A DNA stretch of 64,000 nucleotides from Shigella phage JK36. Shown here in pieces: positions 1-64,000 of this stretch; positions within the stretch are counted from its first letter, which is position 1; every line of letters begins with the position of its first letter. Where the stretch lies: sequence record MK962754.1; one strand, given 5' to 3'. The notes below the pieces were generated by a model. That model did no database searches. It worked only from the letters and a program-made list of their open reading frames with translations, and had not been told where the DNA came from. The position numbers were made by a program, and so were the translations under genes.

Positions 1-1125
<1,125 letters not shown>

Positions 1126-1126
<1 letters not shown>

Positions 1127-1365
1127 TGGACGATTTAATTCAAGCTATTAAATCAAACGACCTCGTTGCTACTCGAAAGTTTTTTGAAAGTGCAATGGCA
1201 GAAAAAACGGTTCGTTTGATTGAAGCACGCAAAGCAGAAATCGCTTCTCAATTTTTGATTGAAGGCGAAGAACCTGAAGAAGAAGAAAAGAAAGCTAAAG
1301 CTTCGGAAGACGACGCTGATGAAGGCGATGACGACGAAGACGAAGATGATGAGGACGATGAATAA
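1126..1365 (+). CDS. 67: prohead core protein gp67 (acidic Asp/Glu-rich C-terminus)
   Basis: 79 aa, near-identical to remembered T4 gp67; ATGA overlap with gene 20 stop. Confidence 0.9.
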
Positions 1366-1790
1366 TGTATCTTATCCCTGAATCTTATGAATTGGTACTC
1401 GAAAATGTCGAAGCACTTATTCCTGAAGCACAGGGCCGAATCGATGCATTGTCTTCTGCTCTCGATATTGACGATATAAATACTATTATCGAGAACATGC
1501 TTGAAACTGAAACGGATTTAGCTGTTGCAATGGCTTCCATTATTAATGAAGAACAGTTAAATGAGTTTATCGTTAAACATGTTTCTTCTCGTGGTGAAGT
1601 CACCCGCACTAAAGACCGTAAAACTCGTGAACGTAACGCGTTCCAAACCACTGGTCTTTCTAAAGCAAAACGTAGACAAATCGCTCGTAAGGTCGTTAAA
1701 GCTAAAAAAGCTAACCCTTCAGGCCAAGTTAAAGGCTTGCGTAAGCGTAAAAAGGCTCTTAAACGTCGTAAAGCATTAGGATTAAGCTAA
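1365..1790 (+). CDS. 68: prohead core protein gp68
   Basis: 141 aa, T4 gene order and size. Confidence 0.85.
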
Positions 1791-2431
1791 TGAATAAACC
1801 CGAGTTACTTATTGAAACTTGGGGTCAACCCGGTGAGATTATTGATGGCGTTCCAATGTTGGAATCTCATGATGGAAAAGATTCTGGCTTAAAACCAGGG
1901 CTTTATATAGAAGGTATTTTTCTTCAGGCAGAGGTTGTTAACCGAAATAAACGTTTATATCCTAAACGCGTTTTGGAAAAAGCAGTAAGTGACTATATTA
2001 AAGAACAAGTCGCAACCAAACAAGCCCTTGGAGAATTAAACCATCCACCTCGTGCAAATGTTGACCCTATGCAAGCCGCTATCATTATCGAAGATATGTG
2101 GTGGAAAGGAAACGATGTATATGGACGTGCTAGAATTATTGAAGGCGACCATGGTCCCGGCGATAAATTAGCTGCTAATATACGAGCTGGTTGGATTCCA
2201 GGTGTTTCCTCTCGTGGTCTTGGTTCTTTAACCGACACCAATAAAGGGTACCGTATCGTGAACGAAGGATTTAAATTAACCGTCGGCGTAGATGCCGTAT
2301 GGGGACCTTCTGCTCCAGATGCTTGGGTTACTCCTAAACAAATATCAGAATCAGAAAATTCGGTGGAAATCACCAAAAACAGTGCTGACGAAGCATTTAA
2401 AGCTCTCGCAGAGAGTTTAAAAGCATTATAA
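1790..2431 (+). CDS. 21: prohead core scaffold protein / prohead protease gp21
   Basis: 213 aa (T4 212 aa), synteny. Confidence 0.9.
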   Translation: MNKPELLIETWGQPGEIIDGVPMLESHDGKDSGLKPGLYIEGIFLQAEVVNRNKRLYPKRVLEKAVSDYIKEQVATKQALGELNHPPRANVDPMQAAIIIEDMWWKGNDVYGRARIIEGDHGPGDKLAANIRAGWIPGVSSRGLGSLTDTNKGYRIVNEGFKLTVGVDAVWGPSAPDAWVTPKQISESENSVEITKNSADEAFKALAESLKAL

Positions 2432-2464: not shown

Positions 2465-3277
2465 ATGATCAAAGAACAACTTTTGAAAGAAGCTCAGAAC
2501 ATCGAGACTTCAGTTGCTCTTAATAGTGTTTTCGAATCAGTAGAACTGTCTCCGGACGTTAAAGCTAATTTCAGCACTGTATTCGAAGCCACCGTTAAGC
2601 AGGAAGCAGTCAAACTTGCTGAATCTCATATCAAAGCCATCGCCGAAAAGGCCGAAGAAGAAGTTGAAAAGGCTAAAGAAGATGCTGAAGAGAAAGCTGA
2701 TAAAAAATTGGCTGAACAAGCTTCTAAATTCCTAGACCATCTTGCAAAAGAATGGCTCGCAGAAAACCAAATCGCAGTTGATAAAGGCATTAAAGCTGAT
2801 TTGTTCGAATCCATGCTTGGTGGTCTGAAAGAACTGTTTGTTGAACATAACGTTGTTGTTCCAGAAGAATCTGTAGATGTTGTAGCAGAAATGGAAGAAG
2901 AGCTGGCCGAACATAAAGAAGAAACCGCTCGTTTGTTCGAAGAAGTTACCAAACGTGATGCATATATCAATTACGTTCAGCGTGAAACCGCTATTAATGA
3001 AAGCGTAAAAGACCTGACTGAATCTCAGAAAGAAAAAGTTATTGGCCTGGTTGAAGGTATGGATTATTCTGACGCATTTGGTACTAAGTTAACTGCTATT
3101 GTAGAAATGGTTAAAGGTTCTACTAAAGAAGAAGCCGCTATTACCGAAAGTATAAATACAGTTGACAATGACGCTGCCGGTCTTAATTTTGTTGCCGAAG
3201 CAGTTGACACTACCACAACTCAGGTAGAACAGAATTCTAATGTAAGTTTATATGCGAAAGTCGCATCTCGTTTCTAA
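2465..3277 (+). CDS. 22: prohead core scaffolding protein gp22
   Basis: 270 aa, acidic coiled-coil-like, synteny. Confidence 0.9.
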   Translation: MIKEQLLKEAQNIETSVALNSVFESVELSPDVKANFSTVFEATVKQEAVKLAESHIKAIAEKAEEEVEKAKEDAEEKADKKLAEQASKFLDHLAKEWLAENQIAVDKGIKADLFESMLGGLKELFVEHNVVVPEESVDVVAEMEEELAEHKEETARLFEEVTKRDAYINYVQRETAINESVKDLTESQKEKVIGLVEGMDYSDAFGTKLTAIVEMVKGSTKEEAAITESINTVDNDAAGLNFVAEAVDTTTTQVEQNSNVSLYAKVASRF

Positions 3278-3294
3278 TTTAAAGGTTAACACAA

Positions 3295-4665
3295 ATGACT
3301 ACTATCAAAACTAAAGCTCAGCTCGTAGACAAATGGAAAGAACTGCTGGAAGGTGAAGGCCTGCCGGAAATCGCTAATAGCAAGCAGGCTATTATCGCTA
3401 AAATCTTCGAAAACCAGGAAAAAGATTTCGAAGTATCCCCTGAATATAAAGACGAGAAAATCGCTCAGGCATTTGGTTCTTTCTTGACCGAAGCTGAAAT
3501 TGGTGGTGACCATGGTTATAATGCTCAGAACATCGCAGCGGGTCAAACCTCTGGTGCAGTAACCCAAATTGGGCCGGCAGTTATGGGTATGGTTCGTCGT
3601 GCTATTCCTAATCTGATCGCTTTTGATATTTGTGGTGTTCAGCCTATGAACAGCCCGACCGGTCAGGTATTTGCTCTCCGTGCAGTATATGGTAAAGACC
3701 CTATCGCTGCTGGCGCTAAAGAAGCTTTCCATCCGATGTATGCTCCAGATGCGATGTTCTCTGGTCAGGGTGCTGCTAAGAAATTCCCAGCTCTGGCTGC
3801 TGACACTACTACTGTTGTAGGTGATATCTATACTCACTTCTTCCAAGAAACTGGTACTGTATATCTGCAAGCTTCTGCTGTCGTAACACTTGATTCTGGT
3901 GCAACTGATGCAGCTAAATTAGATGCAGAAGTTAAGAAACAAATGGAAGCTGGTGCACTGGTAGAAATCGCTGAAGGTATGGCTACTTCTATCGCTGAAC
4001 TCCAGGAAGGTTTCAACGGTTCTACCGATAACCCATGGAATGAAATGGGCTTCCGTATCGATAAACAAGTTATCGAAGCTAAATCTCGCCAGCTGAAAGC
4101 TGCTTACTCTATCGAATTAGCACAAGACCTCCGTGCAGTACACGGTATGGATGCTGATGCTGAATTGAGCGGTATTCTGGCTACAGAAATTATGCTAGAA
4201 ATCAACCGTGAAGTTGTTGATTGGATTAACTACTCTGCACAGGTTGGTAAATCTGGTATGACCCTGACTCCGGGTTCTAAAGCTGGTGTATTTGACTTCC
4301 AGGACCCGATTGATATCCGTGGTGCTCGTTGGGCCGGTGAAAGCTTTAAATCTCTGTTGTTCCAGATTCATAAAGAAGCAGTTGAAATTGCTCGTCAAAC
4401 CGGTCGCGGTGAAGGTAACTTCATTATCGCTTCCCGTAACGTAGTTAACGTACTGGCTTCAGTTGATACTGGTATTTCTTACGCTGCACAGGGTCTGGCT
4501 TCTGGTTTTAATACCGACACTACTAAGTCGTATATGGTAAAGACCCTATCGCTGCTGGCGCTAAAGAAGCTTTCCATCCGATGTATGCTCCAGATGCGAT
4601 GTTCTCTGGTCAGGGTGCTGCTAAGAAATTCCCAGCTCTGGCTGCTGACACTACTACTGTTGTAG
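3295..4665 (+). CDS. 23: gp23 N-terminal fragment (about 411 native codons then 44 out-of-frame codons)
   Basis: ORF track; C-terminal tail YMVKTLSLLALKK... is the duplicated segment read in a shifted frame. Confidence 0.8.
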   Translation: MTTIKTKAQLVDKWKELLEGEGLPEIANSKQAIIAKIFENQEKDFEVSPEYKDEKIAQAFGSFLTEAEIGGDHGYNAQNIAAGQTSGAVTQIGPAVMGMVRRAIPNLIAFDICGVQPMNSPTGQVFALRAVYGKDPIAAGAKEAFHPMYAPDAMFSGQGAAKKFPALAADTTTVVGDIYTHFFQETGTVYLQASAVVTLDSGATDAAKLDAEVKKQMEAGALVEIAEGMATSIAELQEGFNGSTDNPWNEMGFRIDKQVIEAKSRQLKAAYSIELAQDLRAVHGMDADAELSGILATEIMLEINREVVDWINYSAQVGKSGMTLTPGSKAGVFDFQDPIDIRGARWAGESFKSLLFQIHKEAVEIARQTGRGEGNFIIASRNVVNVLASVDTGISYAAQGLASGFNTDTTKSYMVKTLSLLALKKLSIRCMLQMRCSLVRVLLRNSQLWLLTLLLL

Positions 4666-5374
4666 GTGATATCTATACTCACTTCTTCCAAGAAACTGGT
4701 ACTGTATATCTGCAAGCTTCTGCTGTCGTAACACTTGATTCTGGTGCAACTGATGCAGCTAAATTAGATGCAGAAGTTAAGAAACAAATGGAAGCTGGTG
4801 CACTGGTAGAAATCGCTGAAGGTATGGCTACTTCTATCGCTGAACTCCAGGAAGGTTTCAACGGTTCTACCGATAACCCATGGAATGAAATGGGCTTCCG
4901 TATCGATAAACAAGTTATCGAAGCTAAATCTCGCCAGCTGAAAGCTGCTTACTCTATCGAATTAGCACAAGACCTCCGTGCAGTACACGGTATGGATGCT
5001 GATGCTGAATTGAGCGGTATTCTGGCTACAGAAATTATGCTAGAAATCAACCGTGAAGTTGTTGATTGGATTAACTACTCTGCACAGGTTGGTAAATCTG
5101 GTATGACCCTGACTCCGGGTTCTAAAGCTGGTGTATTTGACTTCCAGGACCCGATTGATATCCGTGGTGCTCGTTGGGCCGGTGAAAGCTTTAAATCTCT
5201 GTTGTTCCAGATTGATAAAGAAGCAGTTGAAATTGCTCGTCAAACCGGTCGCGGTGAAGGTAACTTCATTATCGCTTCCCGTAACGTAGTTAACGTACTG
5301 GCTTCAGTTGATACTGGTATTTCTTACGCTGCACAGGGTCTGGCTTCTGGTTTTAATACCGACACTACTAAGTC
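3685..5374. repeat. direct tandem duplication, 2 x 845 bp (3685-4529 and 4530-5374), 844/845 identical
   Basis: hand alignment at offset 845; single mismatch C4369 vs G5214; duplicated antisense ORFs also appear in the ORF track. Confidence 0.9.
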
Positions 5375-5708
5375 TGTATTTGCCGGTGTACTTGGTGGTA
5401 AATACCGCGTATACATCGACCAGTATGCTAAACAGGATTACTTCACCGTTGGTTACAAAGGCGCTAACGAAATGGATGCAGGTATTTACTATGCTCCTTA
5501 CGTTGCACTTACCCCGCTGCGTGGTTCCGATCCTAAGAACTTCCAGCCGGTAATGGGCTTTAAAACTCGTTACGGTATCGGTGTTAACCCGTTTGCTGAA
5601 AGTTCCCTGCAGGCTCCAGGTGCTCGCATCCAGTCCGGTATGCCATCTATCCTGAACAGCCTTGGTAAGAACGCTTACTTCCGCCGTGTATATGTAAAAG
5701 GCATCTAA
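4581..5708 (+). CDS. 23: gp23 C-terminal fragment starting at an internal Met (native frame of second copy plus true 3' end)
   Basis: 375 aa identical to the corresponding part of the upstream ORF except one residue (D vs H), then the native C-terminus ...RRVYVKGI. Confidence 0.8.
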   Translation: MYAPDAMFSGQGAAKKFPALAADTTTVVGDIYTHFFQETGTVYLQASAVVTLDSGATDAAKLDAEVKKQMEAGALVEIAEGMATSIAELQEGFNGSTDNPWNEMGFRIDKQVIEAKSRQLKAAYSIELAQDLRAVHGMDADAELSGILATEIMLEINREVVDWINYSAQVGKSGMTLTPGSKAGVFDFQDPIDIRGARWAGESFKSLLFQIDKEAVEIARQTGRGEGNFIIASRNVVNVLASVDTGISYAAQGLASGFNTDTTKSVFAGVLGGKYRVYIDQYAKQDYFTVGYKGANEMDAGIYYAPYVALTPLRGSDPKNFQPVMGFKTRYGIGVNPFAESSLQAPGARIQSGMPSILNSLGKNAYFRRVYVKGI

Positions 5709-5732
5709 TCTTAATTGATTAAATCTTATTTT

Positions 5733-5762
5733 GGGAGACTTCGGTCTCCCATTTTTGGTTTT
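5733..5762 (+). terminator. rho-independent terminator after gene 23 (GGGAGACUUCGGUCUCCC hairpin + U-tract)
   Basis: perfect 7-bp GC stem with CUUCGG-type loop followed by ATTTTTGGTTTT. Confidence 0.8.
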
Positions 5763-6030
5763 ATTTCTGTGCAATTTCGATGTAAGTTTTCAAAATATTT
5801 TGCCAATTAGGCATACCTTCTTGGACATATGCCGGAGAACCGTCTTTGTTTTTGAATGATGCAAGTTTATCAGTGGCCCAATAACCTTTAGCTCGAGCTT
5901 CAGAATCAACTTTCATCCATACTTTGTTGAAGGCATTACCATTAACTTTTGCACCATATTTTTCTACTAACTTAACTGCTTCAGCTTCCAGAACTTTTAA
6001 AGTATCTCGTAAGAAACGTGCTTTAGTCAT
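5761..6030 (-). CDS. hypothetical early protein (89 aa)
   Basis: ORF with AGGAG-type RBS and an upstream early-type promoter; sits between 23 and 24 where T4 has segD; no family recognised. Confidence 0.55.
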   Translation of the reverse strand: MTKARFLRDTLKVLEAEAVKLVEKYGAKVNGNAFNKVWMKVDSEARAKGYWATDKLASFKNKDGSPAYVQEGMPNWQNILKTYIEIAQK

Positions 6031-6060
6031 TTTGTTTACTCCTCTGTAGTTGATAAGTCT

Positions 6061-6090
6061 ATAGTATCACATACCAAATACGTTGTAAAC
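6061..6090 (-). promoter_or_regulatory. T4 early-type promoter (GTTTAC -35, 17-18 nt spacer, TACTAT -10) for the 89-aa ORF
   Basis: read on the minus strand: GTTTAC...TACTAT. Confidence 0.5.
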
Positions 6091-6096
6091 AATCTT

Positions 6097-6104
6097 TATA
6101 AATA
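6097..6104 (+). promoter_or_regulatory. late promoter TATAAATA upstream of gene 24
   Basis: exact TATAAATA about 28 nt upstream of the gene 24 start. Confidence 0.55.
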
Positions 6105-6131: not shown

Positions 6132-7415
6132 ATGAGTAAAATCCAAAAATTATTGCGTGAATCTACAACGTCTACTAGCAACTCAATTGGTCGCCCAAAT
6201 CTCGTTGCTTTGACTCGCGCTACGACTAAATTAATATATTCTGACATTGTAGCAACACAAAGAACTAATCAACCTGTTGCTGCTTTTTATGGTATCAAAT
6301 ATCTTAACCCAGATAACGAATTCACATTTAAAACCGGTGCTACTTATGCTGGCGAAGTTGGATATGTAGACCGAGAAAAAATTACTGAGCTCACAGAAGA
6401 ATCAAAAGTCACACTAAATAAAGGTGATTTTTTCAAATATAATAATATCGTCTATAAAGTGTTAGAAGATACACCATTTGCAGATATTCAAGAAAGTGAT
6501 CTAGAATTAGCTCTTCAGATTGCAGTCGTTCATTTAAAGGTACGGTTATTTTCAGATGCAGCGGTAACAAGCAAATTTGAAAGCTCTGGTAGCGAAATTT
6601 CTGATGCAAGATTCCAGATTAATAAATGGCAAACTTCAGTCAAATCTCGTAAACTTAAAACTGGCCTCACGGTTGAATTAGCGCAAGATTTGGAAGCGAA
6701 TGGATTTGATGCCCCTAACTTCTTAGAAGATTTGCTTGCTACTGAAATGGCTGATGAAATTAATAAAGATATTCTTCAGTCTTTAATTACTGTATCGAAA
6801 CGTTATAAAGTTACTGGAATTACTGACACCGGATTTATTGACTTGAGCTATGCATCCGCTCCAGAAGCAGGTCGTTCATTATATCGAATGGTGTGTGAAA
6901 TGGTATCACACATTCAAAAAGAGACAACTTATACTGCAACGTTTTGTGTAGCCTCAGCTCGTGCAGCTGCTATTCTTGCTGCTTCTGGTTGGTTAAAACA
7001 TAAGCCAGAAGATGACAAGTATCTTTCACAAAATGCTTATGGATTCTTGGCAAATGGATTACCTCTTTACTGCGATACCAACAGTCCGTTAGATTATGTT
7101 ATTGTGGGTGTTGTAGAAAATATCGGCGAAAAAGAAATTGTAGGGTCCATCTTTTATGCTCCATACACTGAAGGAGTAGATTTAGATGACCCGGAACATG
7201 TCGGTGCATTTAAAGTTGTAGTTGATCCGGAAAGTTTGCAACCGTCTATCGGATTATTGGTTAGATATGCTTTATCAGCAAATCCTTACACAGTAGCAAA
7301 AGACGAAAAAGAAGCGAGAATAATTGATGGCGGGGACATGGATAAAATGGCAGGACGTTCAGACTTGTCTGTTTTATTAGGTGTTAAGCTACCAAAAATT
7401 ATCATTGATGAATAA
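6132..7415 (+). CDS. 24: capsid vertex protein gp24
   Basis: 427 aa (same as T4 gp24); shares the gp23-like ELAQDL motif. Confidence 0.92.
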   Translation: MSKIQKLLRESTTSTSNSIGRPNLVALTRATTKLIYSDIVATQRTNQPVAAFYGIKYLNPDNEFTFKTGATYAGEVGYVDREKITELTEESKVTLNKGDFFKYNNIVYKVLEDTPFADIQESDLELALQIAVVHLKVRLFSDAAVTSKFESSGSEISDARFQINKWQTSVKSRKLKTGLTVELAQDLEANGFDAPNFLEDLLATEMADEINKDILQSLITVSKRYKVTGITDTGFIDLSYASAPEAGRSLYRMVCEMVSHIQKETTYTATFCVASARAAAILAASGWLKHKPEDDKYLSQNAYGFLANGLPLYCDTNSPLDYVIVGVVENIGEKEIVGSIFYAPYTEGVDLDDPEHVGAFKVVVDPESLQPSIGLLVRYALSANPYTVAKDEKEARIIDGGDMDKMAGRSDLSVLLGVKLPKIIIDE

Positions 7416-30390: not shown

Positions 30391-30961
30391 AAAAGTTTCG
30401 GATTTGTTCCCAATTCAGAGAACGAAGATTATTACGAGAGTACTGAATTACTTCAATACCGGCTTGTTTTAGAATGTCTGCCCAATTTTCAGGAGATCTG
30501 TCATATAATTCTGCGTATACAACCTTTTTAATACCTGACTGTGTAATAGCTTTAGTGCAATCAGGACACGGAGAAAGCGTCGTATATAACGTAGCACCTT
30601 CAATAGAATTACCTTTGCGAGCAGCAAACAAAATGGCATTTAATTCAGCATGGATTTCGTTATTAGCAGACCATGCACTATGAGCGGCCCGATGTTCTTT
30701 AGCCAAAACAAAATTATCCACCCGTCCAAATGCTGTAGTGCCTTCTTTATGCCCAGCAACGATGACCGGGCTTGGTTTATTCTTCAACCAACCGTTTTCG
30801 GATGCATGTTCGCAACAGTTTGTACCACCTGAAGGAGAGCCATTATAACCTGTAGAAATAATGCGTCCATCTTTTTCAATGACGGCGCCAACTTTCCATG
30901 AACAACATTTTGATTCTTGAGAAATCAGATAAGCAATCTGAAGATATGTGCTAGCTTTCAT
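30380..30961 (-). CDS. cd: dCMP deaminase
   Basis: 193 aa; zinc-binding HAELNAI and PCPDC motifs. Confidence 0.92.
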   Translation of the reverse strand: MKASTYLQIAYLISQESKCCSWKVGAVIEKDGRIISTGYNGSPSGGTNCCEHASENGWLKNKPSPVIVAGHKEGTTAFGRVDNFVLAKEHRAAHSAWSANNEIHAELNAILFAARKGNSIEGATLYTTLSPCPDCTKAITQSGIKKVVYAELYDRSPENWADILKQAGIEVIQYSRNNLRSLNWEQIRNFCGE

Positions 30962-31197
30962 TATAGTGTTCCGTATACACGAGTTGCTTCAACTAAACCG
31001 TCACTGCCTAATTTAAGGCTAGTAATCTGGTCACCATCTTTAGGATTAACAATTATGAGAAAAGAACGTGGAGATTCTTGAATAACACGTAATGTTGCAT
31101 CTTGGAAACGTTCAGACACTTTATTGATAAGTGCTTGAGCAAATTCTTTTACTTTAATCTGAAATTCGTGCACTGTAATTGGGTTTTCACTTAGCAT
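30961..31197 (-). CDS. hypothetical protein (78 aa)
   Basis: ORF, cd.x cluster. Confidence 0.5.
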   Translation of the reverse strand: MLSENPITVHEFQIKVKEFAQALINKVSERFQDATLRVIQESPRSFLIIVNPKDGDQITSLKLGSDGLVEATRVYGTL

Positions 31198-49910: not shown

Positions 49911-51038
49911 ATGGAAAAATTTATGGCTAAGTTTGGACAAGGATACGTCCAAACGCCATTTTTATCGGAAAGCAATTCAGTACGATTTAAATTAAGCATA
50001 GCGGGCTCTTGCCCGCTATCAACATCTCCTGCTTATATTAAGTTCCAGGATAATCCACTTGGGTCCCAGGTTTTTTCCGTTGGATTAAACGTTCGTGTAA
50101 TAAATCCTACAACGGGTGCAGTAGTTGAATCTAAGACATATAATTTCTCTACTGAAAACGACGCCACGTCAAGTGCATTTGTTACTTTCATGGACACATA
50201 TTCTTCAAATTTTATATTTGCTCTTGTTACTAACGCTAAAACAAACTTTCCGCCAGAAGTTCTTGCATGGTTTAATAAAGCCGGAAGTTCTGCTATTCCA
50301 TTAGCTCAACAAGTTTTAAATATAGTGGACATTTCTTATTCGGCATTTTATATTTCTGGTAAGAATGCTATAGCACTAGAACATATTAAGTATAGTAATA
50401 AGAAAACTTCAACCGACTATAGTACACCACTTGATGTTGTGTACGACACGATCGATGATATTGGTGCTACCGGCTTCCCTAGTCGTACGTACGAATCGAC
50501 AGACACATTTTTATCTGCTGTTGGAGGTACTAATAATGAAATTAAAAGGATGCCTACAACGTCCATTATTACACCTCTCGCTGGGTATAAATTGAAGCCT
50601 GGAGATTTCCTTTATATGAAATTCCAACTAATGGCCGATGCTGATTTGTTAGCACAAGGGACGACACGACTTTCTATTCGTTTCTTTAAATCTCCTTCTA
50701 CTTCACCTATTTCATTTAAGGATATAAACTTTGATGGGGGCGCAGGTGAATGGAAGATATATGAAGACTACATAGAAATTCCTGCTGGTGCTGACGGGTT
50801 CACGATTTATTGTTATCGTACAGCTCCAGTAGGGCAAGGTGGATTAAGAAACGTTATATTAACTGAAGTATCATGCAATGGAAGCGTTTCAAAACCTGCT
50901 GAGTTTGGTATAAATGGTATTCGTGTAAATTATGTTTCAGAATCTTTAAGTGCTCCAGACATAATGACATTACCTACTCAATCTTCAACTTATACCGGTA
51001 AGGTATTTGGACAAGAATTTAAAGAAGCATCAGAATAA
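49911..51038 (+). CDS. 35: long tail fibre hinge connector gp35
   Basis: 375 aa, synteny. Confidence 0.88.
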   Translation: MEKFMAKFGQGYVQTPFLSESNSVRFKLSIAGSCPLSTSPAYIKFQDNPLGSQVFSVGLNVRVINPTTGAVVESKTYNFSTENDATSSAFVTFMDTYSSNFIFALVTNAKTNFPPEVLAWFNKAGSSAIPLAQQVLNIVDISYSAFYISGKNAIALEHIKYSNKKTSTDYSTPLDVVYDTIDDIGATGFPSRTYESTDTFLSAVGGTNNEIKRMPTTSIITPLAGYKLKPGDFLYMKFQLMADADLLAQGTTRLSIRFFKSPSTSPISFKDINFDGGAGEWKIYEDYIEIPAGADGFTIYCYRTAPVGQGGLRNVILTEVSCNGSVSKPAEFGINGIRVNYVSESLSAPDIMTLPTQSSTYTGKVFGQEFKEASE

Positions 51039-51043
51039 ATTTA

Positions 51044-51068
51044 GGGAGACTTCGGTCTCCCATTTTTG
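51044..51068 (+). terminator. hairpin GGGAGACUUCGGUCUCCC + U-tract after gene 35
   Basis: same hairpin sequence as the one after gene 23. Confidence 0.7.
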
Positions 51069-51076
51069 TATAAATA
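51069..51076 (+). promoter_or_regulatory. late promoter TATAAATA upstream of gene 36
   Basis: exact TATAAATA about 25 nt upstream of the gene 36 ATG. Confidence 0.6.
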
Positions 51077-51100
51077 TGGTATACATATAAGGAGACAACT

Positions 51101-51766
51101 ATGGCCGATTTAAAAGCTGGTAGTACAACTGGCGGTGCCGTTATATGGCATCAAGGTAATTTCCCTTTAATGCCAGCAGGTGATGACGTCCTGTATAAAA
51201 CGTTTAAACTCTATTCAGAATATAATAAACCACAAGCTGCTGATAACGATTTCGTTTCTAAAGCTAATGGTGGTACTTATGCATCAAAGGTAACATTTAA
51301 CAGCGGTGTTCAAATACCATATGCTATAAACAATACAAATCAATCTGGTATTTATCCTGGTAATGGAGATGCAGCTACTTTTGTTACAGCAAATATTGAT
51401 ATTGTTTCGTGGTATGGTATTGGTTTTAAATCATCACAAGGAACAGCGGGTAGAACTGTAGTAATCAATACACGTAATGGCGATATTAATACAAAGGGCG
51501 TTGTATCTGCTTCAGGACAAGTAAGAAGCGATATGACTGCTCCGGTTGCAGCAAATGATCTCACAAGAAAAGATTATGTTGATGGACGAATAAATATTGT
51601 TACGGATAACGCAAATTCCCGTGTATTGCGTAAAGGCGATACCATGACTGGTACTTTAACAGCACCAAACTTTTTCTCACAGAATCCGGCGTCTGAGGCT
51701 AATCATGTTCCTCGTTTCGACCAAATCGTAATTAAGGATTCTGTTCAAGATTTCGGCTATTATTAA
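51101..51766 (+). CDS. 36: long tail fibre distal subunit connector gp36
   Basis: 221 aa (same as T4). Confidence 0.9.
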
Positions 51767-51774
51767 GAGGACTT

Positions 51775-54700
51775 ATGGCTACTTTAAAACAAATACAATT
51801 TAAAAGAAGCAAAACCGCAGGTGCACGTCCTGCTGCTTCAGTATTAGCCGAAGGTGAATTGGCTATAAACTTAAAAGATAGAACTCTTTTTACTAAAGAT
51901 GATTCAGGAAATATCATCGATTTAAGCATTTCCGCTGGCGGTAATATCAGTGGAAATATCACTCAAACTGGTGATTATACACAGACTGGAAAATTTAATT
52001 TAATTGGCCCACAGATTATAGCAAGTGGTGGATATATTGAGTTTAATTATCGTACTACTGGAAGTGGGGCTTGGTCCGGTCAACACACTGCAAAAGCTCC
52101 AATTTTTGTAGATTTAAGCTCAGCTACTTCCACATCTGAATATAATCCTATAATTAAACAGCGCTTTAAAGATGGAACTTTTTCATTAGGTACTTTAGTT
52201 TCTGAAGGTTCGTTAAAGATTCATTATATTGATGAAACTGGTCAATCTAAATATTGGACATTTGCGCGCTCAGGTAATTTTCAAGTTGATTCTGGTAATT
52301 TATTAGTATCTGGTGGGTATTTAGTCGCTCAGAGTAATATTGAAACAAGAACAGGTTCTTTGATTGGTCCATCTGTTGTAACTAAAAATATTTCATTTGA
52401 TACGAAAGCGTTTGGACAATACGATTCGCAGTCATTAGTTCAATATGTTTATCCTGGAACTGGTGAAACAAACGGAATTAATTACCTTCGTAAATTCCGT
52501 GCAAAATCTGGTGGTACGATTTATCATGAATTAGCTTCTGCACAAACCGGAAAAAGCGATGAACTGTCTTGGTGGACCGGTAATACAGCCGTTAATAAAC
52601 AAATGGGCCTTCGCAATGATGGGTCTTTAGTGTTGCGACGCTCACTCGCAATTGGTACAATTACAACAGATGAAAACATTAATAATTACGGCTCCACTGG
52701 AGCAATGGGTGAATGCTATATAGTCATTGGAGATGCCGCAACTGGTGTATCATATAAAAGATCTGGTGTATATGATTTAGTTGCTAATGGTCTTTCTATC
52801 GCGTCTATTACTCCTGACAGTTTCCGTAGTACTCGTAAAGCATTATTTGGACGTTCAGAAGACCAAGGCGGAACATGGAATATGCCTGGAACGAACGCTG
52901 CGCTTTTATCAGTTCAAACACAAGCTGATGGAAACTCTGCCGGTGATGGTCAAACCCACATTGGATATAATTCTGGCGGTAAAATGAATCATTATTTTCG
53001 TGGTACTGGTCAGATGAATATCAATACCCAACAAGGTATGGAAATTAATCCAGGACTGTTGAAACTAACAACCGGTACAAACAATGTAATGTTTTATGCT
53101 GATGGCGGTATTACATCCACTAAGCAGCTTTCAATATATAATGGTGTATATTTAGCAGCTAATAATTCTACTGCTGGGCTAACATTCGCTCCAACTACTA
53201 CAGTTGATGGCACTAAGCAAATTTTGTGGGAAGGCGGTACTCGTCCTGGTCAGAATAAAAGCTATGTAACTGTTAAAGCGTGGGGTAATTCATTTAACGC
53301 ATCTGGCGATCGTAATCGTGAAACAGTTTTTGAAGTAGCTGACGGACAAGGTTATTATTTTTATTCCCAACGCGTAGCCCCAAGCGGCTCAGAAACTACT
53401 GGTCCTGTTGTAACCCAGTTCAATGGACAAGTTAATGCTAGAGGAAGTATTATTACTGACGGAAGTTTTAAAGTTAATGGATTAAGCACTTTAGTCGGTA
53501 ATGTTACCATGTCTAACGGTTTGTTTGTCCAAGGTGGTTCTTCTATTACTGGACAAGTAAAAATTGGTGGAACAGCTGATGCATTAAGAATTTGGAATGC
53601 CGAATATGGTGCCATTTTCCGCCGTTCAGAAGCATCATTACATATTATCCCGACTCCTAAAGATGCCGGTGAAAGTGGTGGAATAAGTAATCTCCGCCCG
53701 TTAAGTATTAGTCTTAATAATGGTATGGTACAAATGCGCCATTCCGTTACATTAGGTGATGATGGTGCAGGCGGTAATATGGTGACGGTTGATAATGATT
53801 CTAAAGTTATGGTAATGACGACTAATAGCCGTATTAGTCCTAACTTCCGTATGCAAATTGGACAGTCGTCTTATATTGATGTGGAATGTACTGATGCTGT
53901 GAGACCTGCTGGAGCCGGTTCTTTTGCTTCACAGAATAACGAAAACGTTCGCGCTCCGTTCTATATGAATATTGATAGAACAGATACAAGCACTTATGTT
54001 CCTATTGTGAAACAAAGATACGTTCAAAATAATAGTTGCTATTCTATTGGTACTTTAATTAATGGTGGTAACTTTAGAGTTCATTATCATGAAGGCGGTG
54101 ACGGCGTTTCTACTGGTGCTATTATAAAGGATCTTGGATGGGAATTTAATAAAAACGGTGATTTTTATTCTCCTGGTAAATTAGGCGCTGGAAATATTAG
54201 AATAGGTACTGATGGTAATATTACTGGCGGAACTGGTAACTTTGCTAACTTGAACACAACTATCGAATCATTAAAAACCGATATTGTTTCAAGTTATCCT
54301 ATTGGAGCTCCTATTCCATGGCCTACAGATACTCCTCCTAATGGTTACGCTATTATGGAAGGACAGACTTTTGATAAGTCTGCATACCCAAAATTGGCTA
54401 TAGCTTACCCATCTGGAGTAATTCCTGATATGCGCGGGCAAACTATCAAAGGTAAACCAAGCGGTCGTGCTGTATTAAGCGCAGAAGCCGATGGTGTTAA
54501 GGCTCATAGCCATAGTGCATCGGCTTCAAGTACTGACTTGGGTACTAAAACTACGTCGAGTTTTGATTATGGTACTAAGACGACAAGTAGCTTTGACTAT
54601 GGCACTAAGACTAGCAATACCACAGGTAACCACTCTCATACTGTAAGCGGTACTACGAGTTCTGCTGGTGCACACCAACATGCGCGCTCAGGTCCTCAGA

Positions 54701-55050
54701 TACAAGCCGGCATACCCAATAACATATTCTATGACGGATATAATAGTGTAGGTGCAAACGCCAACGCTAAATTCACTGGAACCGTGAACGGTGCTACTGC
54801 AGGGTCGAATATAGCCAAAACTTCTTCAGACGGTGCTCATACCCATACTTGGTCTGGTACTACAAGCACTACAGGTAACCATGCTCACACAGTAGGTATT
54901 GGTGCTCATACCCATACTGTAGGTATCGGTGCCCACTCTCATTCGGTAGCGATTGGTTCCCATGGACATACAATAACTGTAAATGCCACAGGAAATACAG
55001 AAAACACAGTTAAAAACGTTGCTTTTAACTATATCGTTCGTTTAGCATAA
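51775..55050 (+). CDS. 37: long tail fibre distal subunit gp37 (receptor-binding tip with His-x-His boxes)
   Basis: 1091 aa; C-terminal GHSHTV / AHTHTW / [16 protein letters not shown] motifs as in T4-type gp37. Confidence 0.9.
54541..54615 (+). repeat. 30-bp tandem repeat (2.5 copies) encoding [10 protein letters not shown], with synonymous divergence between copies
   Basis: ggtactaaaactacgtcgagttttgattat / ggtactaagacgacaagtagctttgactat / ggcactaagact... Confidence 0.8.
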
Positions 55051-55055
55051 GGAGA

Positions 55056-55069
55056 GGGGCTTCGGCCCC
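55056..55069 (+). promoter_or_regulatory. intercistronic hairpin GGGGCUUCGGCCCC between 37 and 38 (no U-tract)
   Basis: GC stem-loop 8 nt before the gene 38 ATG. Confidence 0.5.
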
Positions 55070-55077
55070 TTCTAAAT

Positions 55078-55629
55078 ATGAAAATATATCATTATTATTT
55101 TGACACTAAAGAATTTTACAAAGAAGAAAATTACAAACCGATTAAAGGTATGGGTCTTCCAGCTCACTCGACATCTAAAAAACCTTTAGACCCTAAAGAA
55201 GGCTATGCTGTTTTATTTGATGAACGCGAACAAGAATGGGTGTATGTTGAAGACCATCGTGGAAAAACAGTATGGACTTATGATAAGCAAAAAATTGTTA
55301 TTGACACTCCAGGTGCTCTTCAAAATGTTACTACAGAAGAACCTGGTGAATTTGACATTTGGACCGGTGACGGGTGGAAGGAAGATGAAGCATATAAACG
55401 CGTAGTTCAACGTGATAAGAAAATTCATGAACTCTATAAATTATTCAGTGTTTTAAGTTCTCTTATTGACGCAGAGGTTGCTAATAGAGAAGAAAAACGA
55501 AAATTTAAAGAGCTCAAAAAATTCTTTGCCCTTTTAGAAAAACATGAACATCTTGGCGGTGAATTCCCTAAATTCCCTGACCTTGAAAACAAATCTATTA
55601 TCAAAGCGATTATAAATATCTTTAAGTAA
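55078..55629 (+). CDS. 38: gp38, T4-type tail fibre assembly chaperone
   Basis: 183 aa (same as T4 gp38); N-terminus MKIYHYYFDTKEFYKEENYKP matches remembered T4 gp38. Confidence 0.9.
   Translation: MKIYHYYFDTKEFYKEENYKPIKGMGLPAHSTSKKPLDPKEGYAVLFDEREQEWVYVEDHRGKTVWTYDKQKIVIDTPGALQNVTTEEPGEFDIWTGDGWKEDEAYKRVVQRDKKIHELYKLFSVLSSLIDAEVANREEKRKFKELKKFFALLEKHEHLGGEFPKFPDLENKSIIKAIINIFK
55611..55618 (+). promoter_or_regulatory. late promoter TATAAATA upstream of t (inside 3' end of gene 38)
   Basis: exact TATAAATA about 20 nt upstream of the t ATG. Confidence 0.55.
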
Positions 55630-55638
55630 GGAGGTATT

Positions 55639-56298
55639 ATGGCAACACCAAAAGTGTCATTTTCGCCTAGTGATATTCTATTTGGGTTGCTAGATCGTAT
55701 TTTCAAAGATAACGCTACTGGAAAGGTTTTAATGTCCCGAGTAGCGGTAATTATTCTTTTGTTCCTAATGGCACTAATATGGTACAAAGGAAGTATTTTG
55801 CTGGATTATTATGTAAGAGCTAAGTATGATACTTATACTGAAATAATCCAAAAAGAACGAGCTTTACGTTTTGAATCTGCGGCTCTAGAACAACTGCAAA
55901 TAGTTCATATCTCATCTGGTGCAGATTTTAGTGCTGTGTATTCTTTCAGACCTAAAAACTTAAATTATTTTGTCGACCTTATAGCTTATGAAGGCAAACT
56001 ACCTAGCACAATTTCTGAAAAGTCCCTTGGCGGATTCCCGGTGGATAAAACGGCCAATGAATATATAATTCATTTAAGTGGCCGTCATTTCTCATCTAAA
56101 TCAGAATTTGCATTTTTGCCTACAAAATCTAAGACTGCCGAACTTTCTTATATGTATAGTTGTCCATACTTTAATTTGGATAACATCTATGCTGGAACTG
56201 TGACGATGTATTGGTATAAGGGGAATAATATACTTGAGGAAGATCGCTTAGCGGCTATATGCAACCAAGCGGTCCGAATACTAGGAAGGGCTAAATAA
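55639..56298 (+). CDS. t: holin T
   Basis: 219 aa; one N-terminal TM helix plus large periplasmic domain; matches remembered T4 T. Confidence 0.92.
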   Translation: MATPKVSFSPSDILFGLLDRIFKDNATGKVLMSRVAVIILLFLMALIWYKGSILLDYYVRAKYDTYTEIIQKERALRFESAALEQLQIVHISSGADFSAVYSFRPKNLNYFVDLIAYEGKLPSTISEKSLGGFPVDKTANEYIIHLSGRHFSSKSEFAFLPTKSKTAELSYMYSCPYFNLDNIYAGTVTMYWYKGNNILEEDRLAAICNQAVRILGRAK

Positions 56299-56571
56299 TT
56301 AGTTGTTAGAATACATCGCTAAATGACGATAAATATTTTCAAAACCTTCATTGAATTCACTAATCAGTGTTTTCTTTTCTTCGGCAGTTAAATTTGTAAT
56401 TAGTTTTCTGAACGAATTCTGATTTAGCTGCCGACCATCTTTTTTAATTCCAATCTCATTCAAGAATCCGATGAAACTTGCTCGGTCTTCAACAATATCT
56501 TCCCTAGAGAATTTAATCAAAATAGAAGCAATAGTAATAATTTCACGTACGATTTCAATGTCTTTATTCAT
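56299..56571 (-). CDS. asiA: anti-sigma70 factor AsiA
   Basis: 90 aa (same as T4); FSREDIVE..FLNEIG matches remembered T4 AsiA. Confidence 0.92.
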   Translation of the reverse strand: MNKDIEIVREIITIASILIKFSREDIVEDRASFIGFLNEIGIKKDGRQLNQNSFRKLITNLTAEEKKTLISEFNEGFENIYRHLAMYSNN

Positions 56572-56617
56572 AACGTTTTATTCATTCCACTTAGTTGATA
56601 TGGATATAGTACCATTA

Positions 56618-56833
56618 TCAGTGTTGATTGTAAACGGCTTTTTCTACGCTTTTAACGTAATTGGTGTAGTCTTCCTGTTCATACGAGTGTAAGGCCAAGA
56701 ATGGAACTAATAGTTCATTATAGACTAAAGCCTCACGCTCACGTTCGGCCTCTACTACGTTCTGAAGATTATGACTCATATTGTTCCTTATAACTATCAA
56801 TGTAGTCCTGTATGTCGAAGAATGACATTTCAT
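56618..56833 (-). CDS. hypothetical small protein (probably about 53 aa from internal Met)
   Basis: ORF overlapped by the next ORF. Confidence 0.4.
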   Translation of the reverse strand: MKCHSSTYRTTLIVIRNNMSHNLQNVVEAEREREALVYNELLVPFLALHSYEQEDYTNYVKSVEKAVYNQH

Positions 56834-57068
56834 ATTCTAGGACATTAAGAGCCCGTTCTTCAGTATAGTCAGAACCAAAGACGATAGTGATTTCACCGGG
56901 CTTCATGTGATTGAAATCGACACTAAAAGGAATACGAGAACATACTTCGTCTGCCATATCTACGATAACACTACGACACACTTCTCGGTTAACCTGATAA
57001 AGCTCTGCAAGTTCTTCACAACGAATAACAAGTTCAGTGGCAGGATTTTCTTTGATTTTAGTAAGCAT
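56769..57068 (-). CDS. acidic small protein, possible Arn-like anti-restriction DNA mimic
   Basis: 99 aa, strongly acidic; T4 arn occupies this position next to asiA. Confidence 0.45.
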   Translation of the reverse strand: MLTKIKENPATELVIRCEELAELYQVNREVCRSVIVDMADEVCSRIPFSVDFNHMKPGEITIVFGSDYTEERALNVLEYEMSFFDIQDYIDSYKEQYES

Positions 57069-57142
57069 AGTCTTTACCCTTATGTTTTTGTTTGCGTTTA
57101 GATTGAAGTTCTGATTTCTTCTTGTCCTTATGGACAGAAGCC

Positions 57143-57370
57143 TTATTGAAATCGTGTTTTGCTACAAGATTGTTCATAATGATTTATAACCTCATTTAAA
57201 CATTTGTCTGTGAAAGAAAACTTTTTAGCCACAGAACATTCGATAATGTGCTCTTTCAAATCTTTAGAGTCAGTATATCCCATCTCAGTAATAAAGTGAC
57301 GAATTAAAGCTTTATTCTTATCATTAACAGAATTAAAATAATCTGCTTTAGAATCAATTATTCTCATCAT
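57143..57370 (-). CDS. hypothetical protein (75 aa)
   Basis: ORF. Confidence 0.5.
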   Translation of the reverse strand: MMRIIDSKADYFNSVNDKNKALIRHFITEMGYTDSKDLKEHIIECSVAKKFSFTDKCLNEVINHYEQSCSKTRFQ

Positions 57371-57635
57371 CTAATTTCCTTAATTGATATTGCAACGAGC
57401 CAATAATTTCTTCGTTCATTTTAATATACATGTCGCGCAAGAAAGGTTTTAACCCATCACGAATAATTGCTAACGTATCACCTTTACATAAATTAACCAA
57501 ATAAGGATGGTCTAAAGCATCCCAACCAGGCTGATTAGCATACATACCATAATTTTCTTCCATCATAGCATTCAGGCGTTTGATATGATTAATGTGGGCT
57601 TCAATAGCATCAATCTGGAGTTGTTTAAGATTCAT
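57354..57635 (-). CDS. hypothetical protein (93 aa)
   Basis: ORF. Confidence 0.5.
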   Translation of the reverse strand: MNLKQLQIDAIEAHINHIKRLNAMMEENYGMYANQPGWDALDHPYLVNLCKGDTLAIIRDGLKPFLRDMYIKMNEEIIGSLQYQLRKLDDENN

Positions 57636-58096
57636 TAGTAAAGGTCCTCAGAGTAAAGTTCTTTTTCATTACCACCACGTTCAATACGTACTTGTCCAGC
57701 GTAAGTTGCAATAATCATTGCTTCTTCACGTGTCCAATAATTACTATATTGGTCAATAAACCCTTGGTCATCATCACAAACTTGTTGAGTAACTAATTGA
57801 GGTTTAACTACATCTAAAACTTCTGCCATATCTTTAGAATAATGACGAGCACCTGGAATAATAAGAGTTCGTCCGTCTTTTAATTTAAAACGGTTGGCTG
57901 CGCAGACAATTCGTCGTTGATACTTTTGGTTTTCATCCCAATACAGAGTCTGCCAACAGATTTCAGGAACTTCATCTAAAACATTTTGTTCTGTATATTC
58001 ACCGCCGTAAGAAGCTAATTTAGCAGCCAGACTTTCCGGAGTCTCACGCGACAAAGCTTTATCTAACAGAGCTAAACGTTCTTTAAAAGTTTTCAT
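57635..58096 (-). CDS. hypothetical protein (153 aa)
   Basis: ORF, ATGA overlap. Confidence 0.55.
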
Positions 58097-58422
58097 TTAA
58101 ACCATCCTTTAATACGTTGCCAAATAGATTTTTGTGCTTGTTTATTTACACCAATCGAACGAATAACCGGTTGTGACTGCTGGTATTCTTTATAATCTTC
58201 TTTATAGATTTCGTAAGCTGCATCAACAAATGAACTGATCGCTGCCATGTAGTTTTTACGAAGGCCAAATGGCGCGTCATTATTTTCACGAATAACCGTA
58301 TATTGGCCTGCTTTAATCTTTACAATTGTCCCTAAATAAGCCCCGTGGTACCAAATATCCCATCCTTCCTGAGTAGGTTCTGCACATTTACGAAGTTCGT
58401 TAATAATATTCAGCTTATTCAT
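58093..58422 (-). CDS. hypothetical protein (109 aa)
   Basis: ORF, ATGA overlap. Confidence 0.55.
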
Positions 58423-58432
58423 TATGTATTCC

Positions 58433-59065
58433 TCACAGTACGTTAGTTACAAGGGTAATGATTTCTTTGGACACATTAGGGAAGTCAATGTAAGTATATT
58501 TACCACCGATCTTAATCTTAACATCATTTTCAAGAGAAGTAAACAGCTTTGATTCAGTTTCTGACATGTTGTATGCAAAGATTCTAAGAGCGCCATCTCG
58601 ACGAATTTCGATCTGACGAATACCTAGAACTCGTTTTGCAAATCGAACTTCTAAGTTACTACGGTTTTCACCAATTTCTTTAACTTCAACTTTATCTTTA
58701 ATATTTTCAAAAACAAAGTTTGCTAATTCATGCATTTCAGGAGTAACTCCACGTGCTTTTCTGGTGTTACGTTTCTGAAGAAGTTCTGGAGCATTTTCTT
58801 GAGCAAATAGGTCTGCAGCTTTTTGGATAATATCCATTGCTTCGCCTGTTGCTACAAGTCCATCACCGGATTTTTCGACCAAACCTTTCTTAATCAATAC
58901 ACCAATGTTAGAGTTAACAACCGATGCATTGTATTCTGCTTCCAGAGCTTCACGGACATTGGCAGCAGTGGTGAAGTTGTTCTTAATGATATAAACCATT
59001 ATTGCAGCAGTTTTTTCATTCAGAGCGTTTTCAGAAGCTTTGATGATGTAAGTAACTTTAGACAT
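58433..59065 (-). CDS. motA: MotA middle-transcription activator
   Basis: 210 aa; N-terminus MSKVTYIIKAS...NVLNEKTA and NSNIGVLIKKGLVEKSGDGL match remembered T4 MotA. Confidence 0.9.
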   Translation of the reverse strand: MSKVTYIIKASENALNEKTAAIMVYIIKNNFTTAANVREALEAEYNASVVNSNIGVLIKKGLVEKSGDGLVATGEAMDIIQKAADLFAQENAPELLQKRNTRKARGVTPEMHELANFVFENIKDKVEVKEIGENRSNLEVRFAKRVLGIRQIEIRRDGALRIFAYNMSETESKLFTSLENDVKIKIGGKYTYIDFPNVSKEIITLVTNVL

Positions 59066-59100
59066 TTTATTTCTCCAATTCGGTTGTTTTGTTTTGATAG

Positions 59101-59140
59101 GTTTATAATATCATGTTTGAAGCACGTGTAAACTGTTTTG
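59101..59140 (-). promoter_or_regulatory. early-type promoter upstream of motA (GTTTAC, 17 nt, TATTAT)
   Basis: minus-strand read GTTTACacgtgcttcaaacatgaTATTAT. Confidence 0.5.
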
Positions 59141-63054: not shown

Positions 63055-63991
63055 ATAATTCAGTAACGTCTGAAATTACTTCATAACGACAAGTACGCAT
63101 CTTAGCATCACCATAGTCGACTGGGATGGATACAACATCACGTGGATGAACTTTAACTTTCACAACTTTATCTGAGCTTGAACCAAAGTGGCGAATATAA
63201 GATTTAGCACAAACGTGGAGACCGCGAGAACAGGTTTGAGTATCATCGTCGTTAACTCGAGTACGAGGCATTGAAACAACTTTACCTGGGGAGTTATCAA
63301 ATGTACCACTATAGCAGTCTAAATAGTCCTTACGAACTACTTTCCACGCATAGAAATGACCATCTTCAGTGATTTCAATATCGTTTGCAACCAAGAAGTC
63401 GAATAAACGTTGTACAGCTTTTTCACTTGGGTTTTCTAACAGGTTTTCAAGGAATGGCAGATAGAATTTAAAGTCTTCACCTTTTTCCATGGAATCAATA
63501 ATACGGTTAACCAACCCTGAACGAATCTCTATACCTTGATAAAATAAACTACCACCTTCAATAGTAACATTACCATCAACAAACTTAGTAATAGCTTTCT
63601 TGATGTTAATAAGTTCGACAGCTTTACTAAGGTTTCCTGCGACCAGATTAGCTTTAATTTCTTCAAAATTTGCATGACTTGATGGAGTCGCATTGTATGC
63701 TACGCGTCCTTCAATAATTGAAATAAATTTAGATGACGCGTTCCATACGATTTCAGGACGATGTCCGCCGATAATAGGTTCATCATTTTCTGGAACTTCT
63801 TCGATTACATAAGAGGCATCGTTTGCTTCAGGGACAACGCCTTCTGCTTTAAAATTCTTAACAATCTTACGAAGAGTATCTGTTGAAATGTCGAAGTAAT
63901 CGGCAATTTCTTTACGAGTCCATTTGCCTGATTCAACCAGGCCGTAAGCTTCTAACTGTTCTTCTTGGGACAAGCATTTGATATTGTACAT
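63044..63991 (-). CDS. rIIB: RIIB protein
   Basis: 315 aa; MYNIKCL... N-terminus and conserved C-terminal half match remembered T4 rIIB. Confidence 0.92.
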   Translation of the reverse strand: MYNIKCLSQEEQLEAYGLVESGKWTRKEIADYFDISTDTLRKIVKNFKAEGVVPEANDASYVIEEVPENDEPIIGGHRPEIVWNASSKFISIIEGRVAYNATPSSHANFEEIKANLVAGNLSKAVELINIKKAITKFVDGNVTIEGGSLFYQGIEIRSGLVNRIIDSMEKGEDFKFYLPFLENLLENPSEKAVQRLFDFLVANDIEITEDGHFYAWKVVRKDYLDCYSGTFDNSPGKVVSMPRTRVNDDDTQTCSRGLHVCAKSYIRHFGSSSDKVVKVKVHPRDVVSIPVDYGDAKMRTCRYEVISDVTELFAE

Positions 63992-64000
63992 AATGTTTCC

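Follow-up and report, generated by a model that had tools for sequence, protein, structure and literature searches.

The major capsid gene of Shigella phage JK36, as deposited, is interrupted by an internal duplication, which raises the question of whether the phage itself carries the rearrangement or whether it was introduced when the sequence was put together. The analysis was carried out on a window of 64,000 nucleotides (nt) of the phage record (MK962754.1). Gene 23, coding for the major capsid protein, occupies positions 3295..5708 of its plus strand as written, a length of 2414 nt that includes the duplication. Comparison of the window with itself identified a direct repeat of 845 bp in head-to-tail arrangement on the plus strand, in which copy 1 (3685..4529) is followed by copy 2 (4530..5374) with identity at 844 of the 845 positions, as reported in the first-pass annotation of this DNA. 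The first 300 nt of the two copies are 100% identical and the sole mismatch is a C at position 4369 of copy 1 facing a G at position 5214 of copy 2. Identity at offset 845 falls to background directly outside the limits of the repeat. The duplicated unit starts at codon 131 and ends with the second base in codon 412. No other direct or inverted repeat of at least 60 nt is present in the 64-kb window and, because it is the only one of this kind, the 845-bp repeat is far beyond chance. The window gave no result with Tandem Repeats Finder because the longest period that this program considers is 500.

The two copies meet at position 4529/4530 with the sequence ACTAAGTC/GTATATGG (AAGTC/GTATATGG in short form). 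As the first-pass annotation had also stated, there is no microhomology at this junction (0 bp): the match extends by 0 bases to the left and by 0 bases to the right. No base was inserted or lost at the join, the single-copy gene 23 measuring exactly 1569 nt, and the 26-mer that spans the junction occurs once in the window. According to our own calculation, an arbitrary join without a shared base on either side is expected in roughly 56% of cases. Boundaries as blunt and arbitrary as these would also be left by an in silico or laboratory edit in which the gene 23 block was pasted twice, deliberately or by accident. Such an edit is hardly credible: no vector, marker, scar or foreign sequence was seen at the junction, a copy-and-paste operation would give identical copies instead of 844 identities in 845 positions, and there is no rationale for engineering a frame-breaking duplication inside gene 23.

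The structure of the junction bears as well on a genuine tandem duplication in the sequenced DNA, carried by a subpopulation or by a defective genome, which would have arisen by illegitimate recombination or by replication slippage. T4-type phages readily form tandem segmental duplications (PMC9391042). The repeat found here resembles those described in T4 (rII, Hp17 gene 17–18, and dmd-tifA; PMC9391042) in being head-to-tail, hundreds of bp long, and of a size tolerable for headful packaging; the extra 845 bp fits within a terminal redundancy of roughly 3.3 kb (PMC9391042), so the genome would be packageable. However, the dmd-tifA amplifications typically join at 6–10 bp of microhomology and earlier studies of duplications in rII and in genes 16–18 found 2–10 bp (PMC9391042), whereas 0 bp is shared on either side of the junction here, as opposed to 2–10 bp at both boundaries in the T4-type events, which keep one copy of the microhomology at the junction. 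The T4 duplications hold whole expressed genes that are selected for their dosage, while the 845-bp unit lies inside one essential gene (codons 131–412), contains no complete dosage-selectable gene, shifts the reading frame, and would bring no benefit, being lethal. Taken with the evidence presented below, a genuine duplication appears unlikely.

An imperfect similarity (C-GTAT-TG; 8 of 10 positions) was noted between the left boundary of the repeat (3683–3692) and the sequence that follows the right one (5374–5383), which lie 846 nt apart when a single copy is counted. Recombination at this motif would yield an in-frame duplication of 846 bp (282 codons). The observed unit has 845 bp and the match at offset 846 is probably a coincidence. 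A scenario in which recombination at the imperfect GTAT match first duplicated 846 bp in frame and 1 nt was then lost was considered and set aside as less parsimonious; a gp23 (gene product 23) with an in-frame insertion of 282 amino acids is, moreover, unlikely to be functional. We also considered an origin of the repeat from a g23 marker amplicon, presumably the one obtained with primers MZIA1bis/MZIA6. This was rejected on the grounds that the repeat has its boundaries at codons 131 and 412, and the motifs DICGVQPM and EIMLEINR match neither of them.

The duplication breaks the reading frame of gene 23. The frame that opens at 3295 stops at 4665 (ORF 3295..4665, plus strand) and codes for 456 amino acids, of which 412 are identical to the native protein and the last 44 are out of frame (codon 412 is TCG instead of TCT, both coding for Ser). 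The native carboxyl-terminal frame is found only in a second ORF that starts at an internal Met (4581..5708, plus strand) and whose 375 amino acids correspond to native residues 148–522. This organization of the broken gene is the one proposed in the first-pass annotation. No Shine-Dalgarno motif was seen in the sequence upstream of the second ORF (gaagctttccatccgATG). Neither the 456-amino acid nor the 375-amino acid fragment has an exact entry in the protein index searched, and both match the Pfam family PF07068 (Gp23) with scores of 272.5 and 332.6 bits (cut-off 24.4). Deletion of either copy of the repeat yields an intact gene 23 of 522 codons followed by its stop codon. This collapsed gene shows 2 differences relative to gene 23 of Escherichia phage APCEc01 when copy 2 is kept and 3 when copy 1 is kept. 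Its product is identical (522/522) to the gp23 encoded by a metagenome contig from ENA (L004), and it aligns end to end with the T4 gp23 structures 6uzc and 7vs5, over residues 3–522 (1104.8 bits) in the case of 6uzc. In this the collapsed protein of 522 amino acids resembles the gp23 family (PF07068; T4 gp23 structures 6uzc, 7vs5, and 5vf3), from which the gene of the window differs by being split in two overlapping partial ORFs without a full-length product.

Two ways to rescue gp23 synthesis from the gene as written were examined and rejected. There was no signal for recoding by frameshifting or bypassing, for which 845 nt would have to be skipped. There was also no signal for complementation between the two gp23 fragments, the second ORF being devoid of a ribosome-binding site.

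Recombination between direct repeats is established biology in T4, and the presence of two 845-bp copies could allow an intact gene 23 to be regenerated by this route in the infected cell. A genuine duplication would persist only through a co-infecting wild type or through segregants that have recombined between the copies. It breaks an essential gene with no conceivable selective benefit and should therefore not become the consensus of a lysate. In the extreme form of this explanation the rearranged DNA would be physically real and abundant in the sequenced stock: a Mosigvirus genome, defective because the frame of its gene 23 is broken, would travel as a hitch-hiker or natural "cheater" genotype, a proposal to which we give very little credence. 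Intact gp23 would then be supplied by the co-infecting wild type, or by wild-type segregants that recombination between the two copies generates in each infected cell.

Gene 23 sits in a canonical T4-type head module. It is preceded by a gene coding for 270 amino acids (2465..3277) that aligns with an APCEc01 gene annotated as prohead core protein and it is followed by the vertex protein gene 24 (6132..7415). An ORF of 89 amino acids without a Pfam family is found between genes 23 and 24 on the minus strand (5761–6030); an ORF of the same size occupies the same position between the two genes in the six relatives that cover the locus (L002–L007). In reverse complement, APCEc01 (KR422352), an RB69-like phage of the genus Mosigvirus, is collinear with the window from position 81468 of its record down to 17097, and the best-conserved blocks are 99.4–99.9% identical in the two sequences. 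Gene 23 is the only one found split among 130 stop-to-stop frames of at least 80 amino acids common to APCEc01 and the window, which bears out the earlier claim that no other gene is disrupted. The remaining frames flagged in this comparison are accounted for by hits to paralogues, by the portal gene that is cut by the start of the window, and by small differences in frame length. Because gene 23 alone is split, the sequence of the window is not generally noisy and the defect is one discrete structural error.

Several differences between the window and APCEc01 were identified far from gene 23. About 1.1 kb of APCEc01 (record positions 50258–51353) is missing from the window at approximately 30946–30964. 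The missing segment carries APCEc01_082, annotated as hypothetical, which matches the Pfam family DAHP_synth_1 (PF00793, E 5e-75); it is an accessory gene of metabolism whose presence varies between these phages. The gp37-like distal long-tail-fibre gene (51775–55629, 1091 amino acids) is only ~60% identical to the one of APCEc01; its segment 51957–54205 had no megablast match and the 1091-amino acid protein has no exact entry in the protein index. For the adjacent tail-fibre assembly protein of 183 amino acids, the only identical match is in phage moha (MN850590.1), which has a different gp37 of 1163 amino acids. To judge from these comparisons, the region coding for gp37 and the 183-amino acid protein looks like a mosaic host-range module. 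The segment that follows the tail-fibre/holin module (54205–59134) is markedly more divergent from APCEc01 than the rest, with 95.7% identity and 21 gap openings, and an indel of ~240 bp relative to APCEc01 is found near 59.1 kb (59057–59134).

Relatives of the phage were searched for the duplication by megablast against a database of 50,697 phage records, using as queries positions 3000–6100, 20000–44000, and the junction segment 4400–4660. The matches listed were to single-copy relatives, the best being APCEc01 (99.3–99.8%), whose identity to the 24-kb query is about 99.3%. In the best 30 of the 1042 records that matched the 3101-nt query 3000–6100, this query covers only 2255–2256 nt of the record. 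The contiguous junction was absent from the best 15 of the 911 phage records that matched the junction segment, which is found in those records as two pieces separated by ~850 bp. Ten relatives whose sequence was read directly have one gp23 gene each, of 522 amino acids in nine cases and 525 in one. The junction 26-mer had 0 exact matches in the collections of metagenomes, genomes, and viral contigs, and no junction match was found in complete E. coli genomes. A control search with the native 26-mer retrieved 0 viral contigs and 2 metagenome contigs, and the negative results from those collections are accordingly weak; the phage collection provides the informative negative because the others hold few or no close relatives. 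A genuine duplication is thus at odds with its absence from the relatives compared.

Two sequences retrieved in these searches deserve a separate mention. The relative with a gp23 of 525 amino acids is a metagenome contig (L012; OCHD01000040.1) that codes for the protein on its minus strand, in a frame starting at position 2160 of the reverse complement; the 525 versus 522 amino acids apparently represent a small in-frame length difference. A Logan contig of 56.6 kb found in 17 samples (L008; SRR19761043_288; 1–1379) begins 95 nt upstream of gene 24, which suggests that assemblies from other datasets break repeatedly in the vicinity of gene 23.

The single mismatch between the copies is informative about their history. 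Codon 359 is CAC (His) in copy 1, where C4369 precedes the final base of the copy by 160 nt, and GAC (Asp) in copy 2, a D359H substitution. Among 189 related phage records none had an identical 61-mer with the C allele, while the corresponding 61-mer with the G allele was identical in 133 of 204. Of the ten relatives read, nine have Asp359 and the remaining one (the 525-amino acid protein of L012) was read out of register; the residue of T4 gp23 aligned to position 359 is also Asp. By this comparison His359 is private to copy 1 and Asp359, encoded by G5214, is the ancestral state. The C/G difference is most simply attributed to a consensus error near the presumed end of a contig, although C-to-G is not the commonest sequencing error. 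A lethal duplication, on the other hand, must be very young, and one recent enough not to have been purged should have identical copies, whereas copy 1 carries a substitution seen in none of the 189 relatives. The mutation rate of T4 is reportedly ~2e-8 per bp per replication, according to Drake's estimate, and a substitution within a young duplication is very improbable because this rate is low.

The presence of exactly one difference between the copies is also what two strain alleles would look like. In a local mis-assembly, the duplication could originate from chimeric molecules generated by amplification or ligation, or from two near-identical strains assembled together, one with His359 and the other with Asp359, whose alleles were threaded in series by the assembler. 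Of the T4-type genes, gene 23 is the most conserved, and the assembly of L008 breaks just downstream from it, two features that fit such an event. Nevertheless, the His359 allele occurs in no other record among the 189 compared, and a bubble caused by one SNP does not by itself make an 845-bp cycle in the assembly graph, so that reads across the junction would still be required. We therefore hold a mis-assembly of this type to be quite improbable. It belongs in any case to the same class as an overlap between contigs, the duplication not being in the phage, and only the mechanism differs.

The way in which the record was opened is relevant to this latter possibility. The last 9 bases of the window (63992..64000) are the spacer between rIIA and rIIB: rIIB starts at 63991 on the minus strand and the last base of the window adjoins the rIIA stop codon. 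Record MK373784.1, which is opened at rIIA as complement(1..2214), ends with the same bases (...CATAATGTTTCC). This shows that the record was re-opened (rotated) at rIIA following the T4 convention and that the window comprises its last 64 kb, at the 3′ end. The ends of the original contig are, as a consequence of the rotation, now somewhere inside the record. Rotation is necessary for an explanation based on contig ends, yet it is non-discriminating, being a common practice that is expected also if the duplication is real. It places no old join at 4529/4530 specifically, a position that we infer.

Owing to their circular permutation, T4-type genomes appear circular on assembly, and their contig ends are arbitrary and overlap. 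We consider it likely, on the basis of the sequence comparisons, that the duplication is an untrimmed overlap between the contig ends of such a permuted genome. Two contig ends, or two neighbouring contigs, would have shared 845 bp of gene 23, and instead of being merged they would have been placed end to end. The subsequent rotation to rIIA would then have moved the untrimmed overlap to the interior of the record. A perfect tandem duplication made in this way would have blunt and arbitrary limits, would be indifferent to the reading frame and would be missing from all relatives, a pattern that agrees with the one observed. Copy 1 would correspond to the 3′ end of the original contig and copy 2 to its 5′ end, with 4529/4530 as the point where the ends were abutted; the private C4369, situated near a contig end, may be a consensus call with low support. 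De Bruijn graph assemblers leave an overlap of the size of the k-mer. As 845 bp is far above such an overlap, an overlap-based or long-read assembler, or the manual joining of contigs, would be required.

A number of observations argue for an untrimmed overlap. Removal of either copy restores a gene near-identical to that of APCEc01 with nothing gained or lost at the join. A phage could not propagate with a frame break in a structural gene that is essential and present once. Elsewhere the sequence (63 kb) is clean, with no second repeat of at least 60 nt. Unlike genuine T4 segmental duplications, the junction lacks microhomology, and it is missing from the relatives compared. The lone mismatch, a variant specific to copy 1, is situated 160 nt from the junction, at the place expected for a contig end. 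The Phage Annotation Guide (PMC8785237) counts terminal repeats located mid-sequence, together with circularisation, among the common artefacts of assembly, and duplicated overlapping ends, often seen in assemblies and in need of trimming, have been reported for HGAP (PMC5513972). The 845-bp repeat shares with these untrimmed overlaps (PMC8785237; PMC5513972) the head-to-tail arrangement, the arbitrary blunt boundaries, and the apparently circular genome; likewise, its collapse restores collinearity and the gene, the record was rotated, and the lone discrepancy is found near an end. It differs from them in its length, 845 bp being more than the k-mer overlap that de Bruijn assemblers working on short reads typically leave. 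If the duplication is an artefact, the real phage has one intact gene 23 of 522 codons.

The first-pass annotation had listed four explanations for the repeat without ranking them. An artefact, which was among them, is favoured by the evidence gathered here, which argues against a genuine rearrangement at the level of the consensus. The repeat is real in the sequence but most probably it is not a real feature of the phage, and the sequence evidence does not favour a real duplication. If it is an artefact, its value is for curation only: the record would be 845 bp too long, its annotation would show two partial or pseudogene major capsid ORFs, and analyses such as gp23 phylogeny, gene-content clustering, and completeness checks could be misled. 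The correction would be to delete one copy and to keep the version with Asp359. If, instead, the duplication were real, it would represent an unusual lethal rearrangement of a structural gene present at detectable frequency in the stock of a T4-type phage, and it would bear on the dynamics of defective genomes and on the rate at which duplications revert by recombination.
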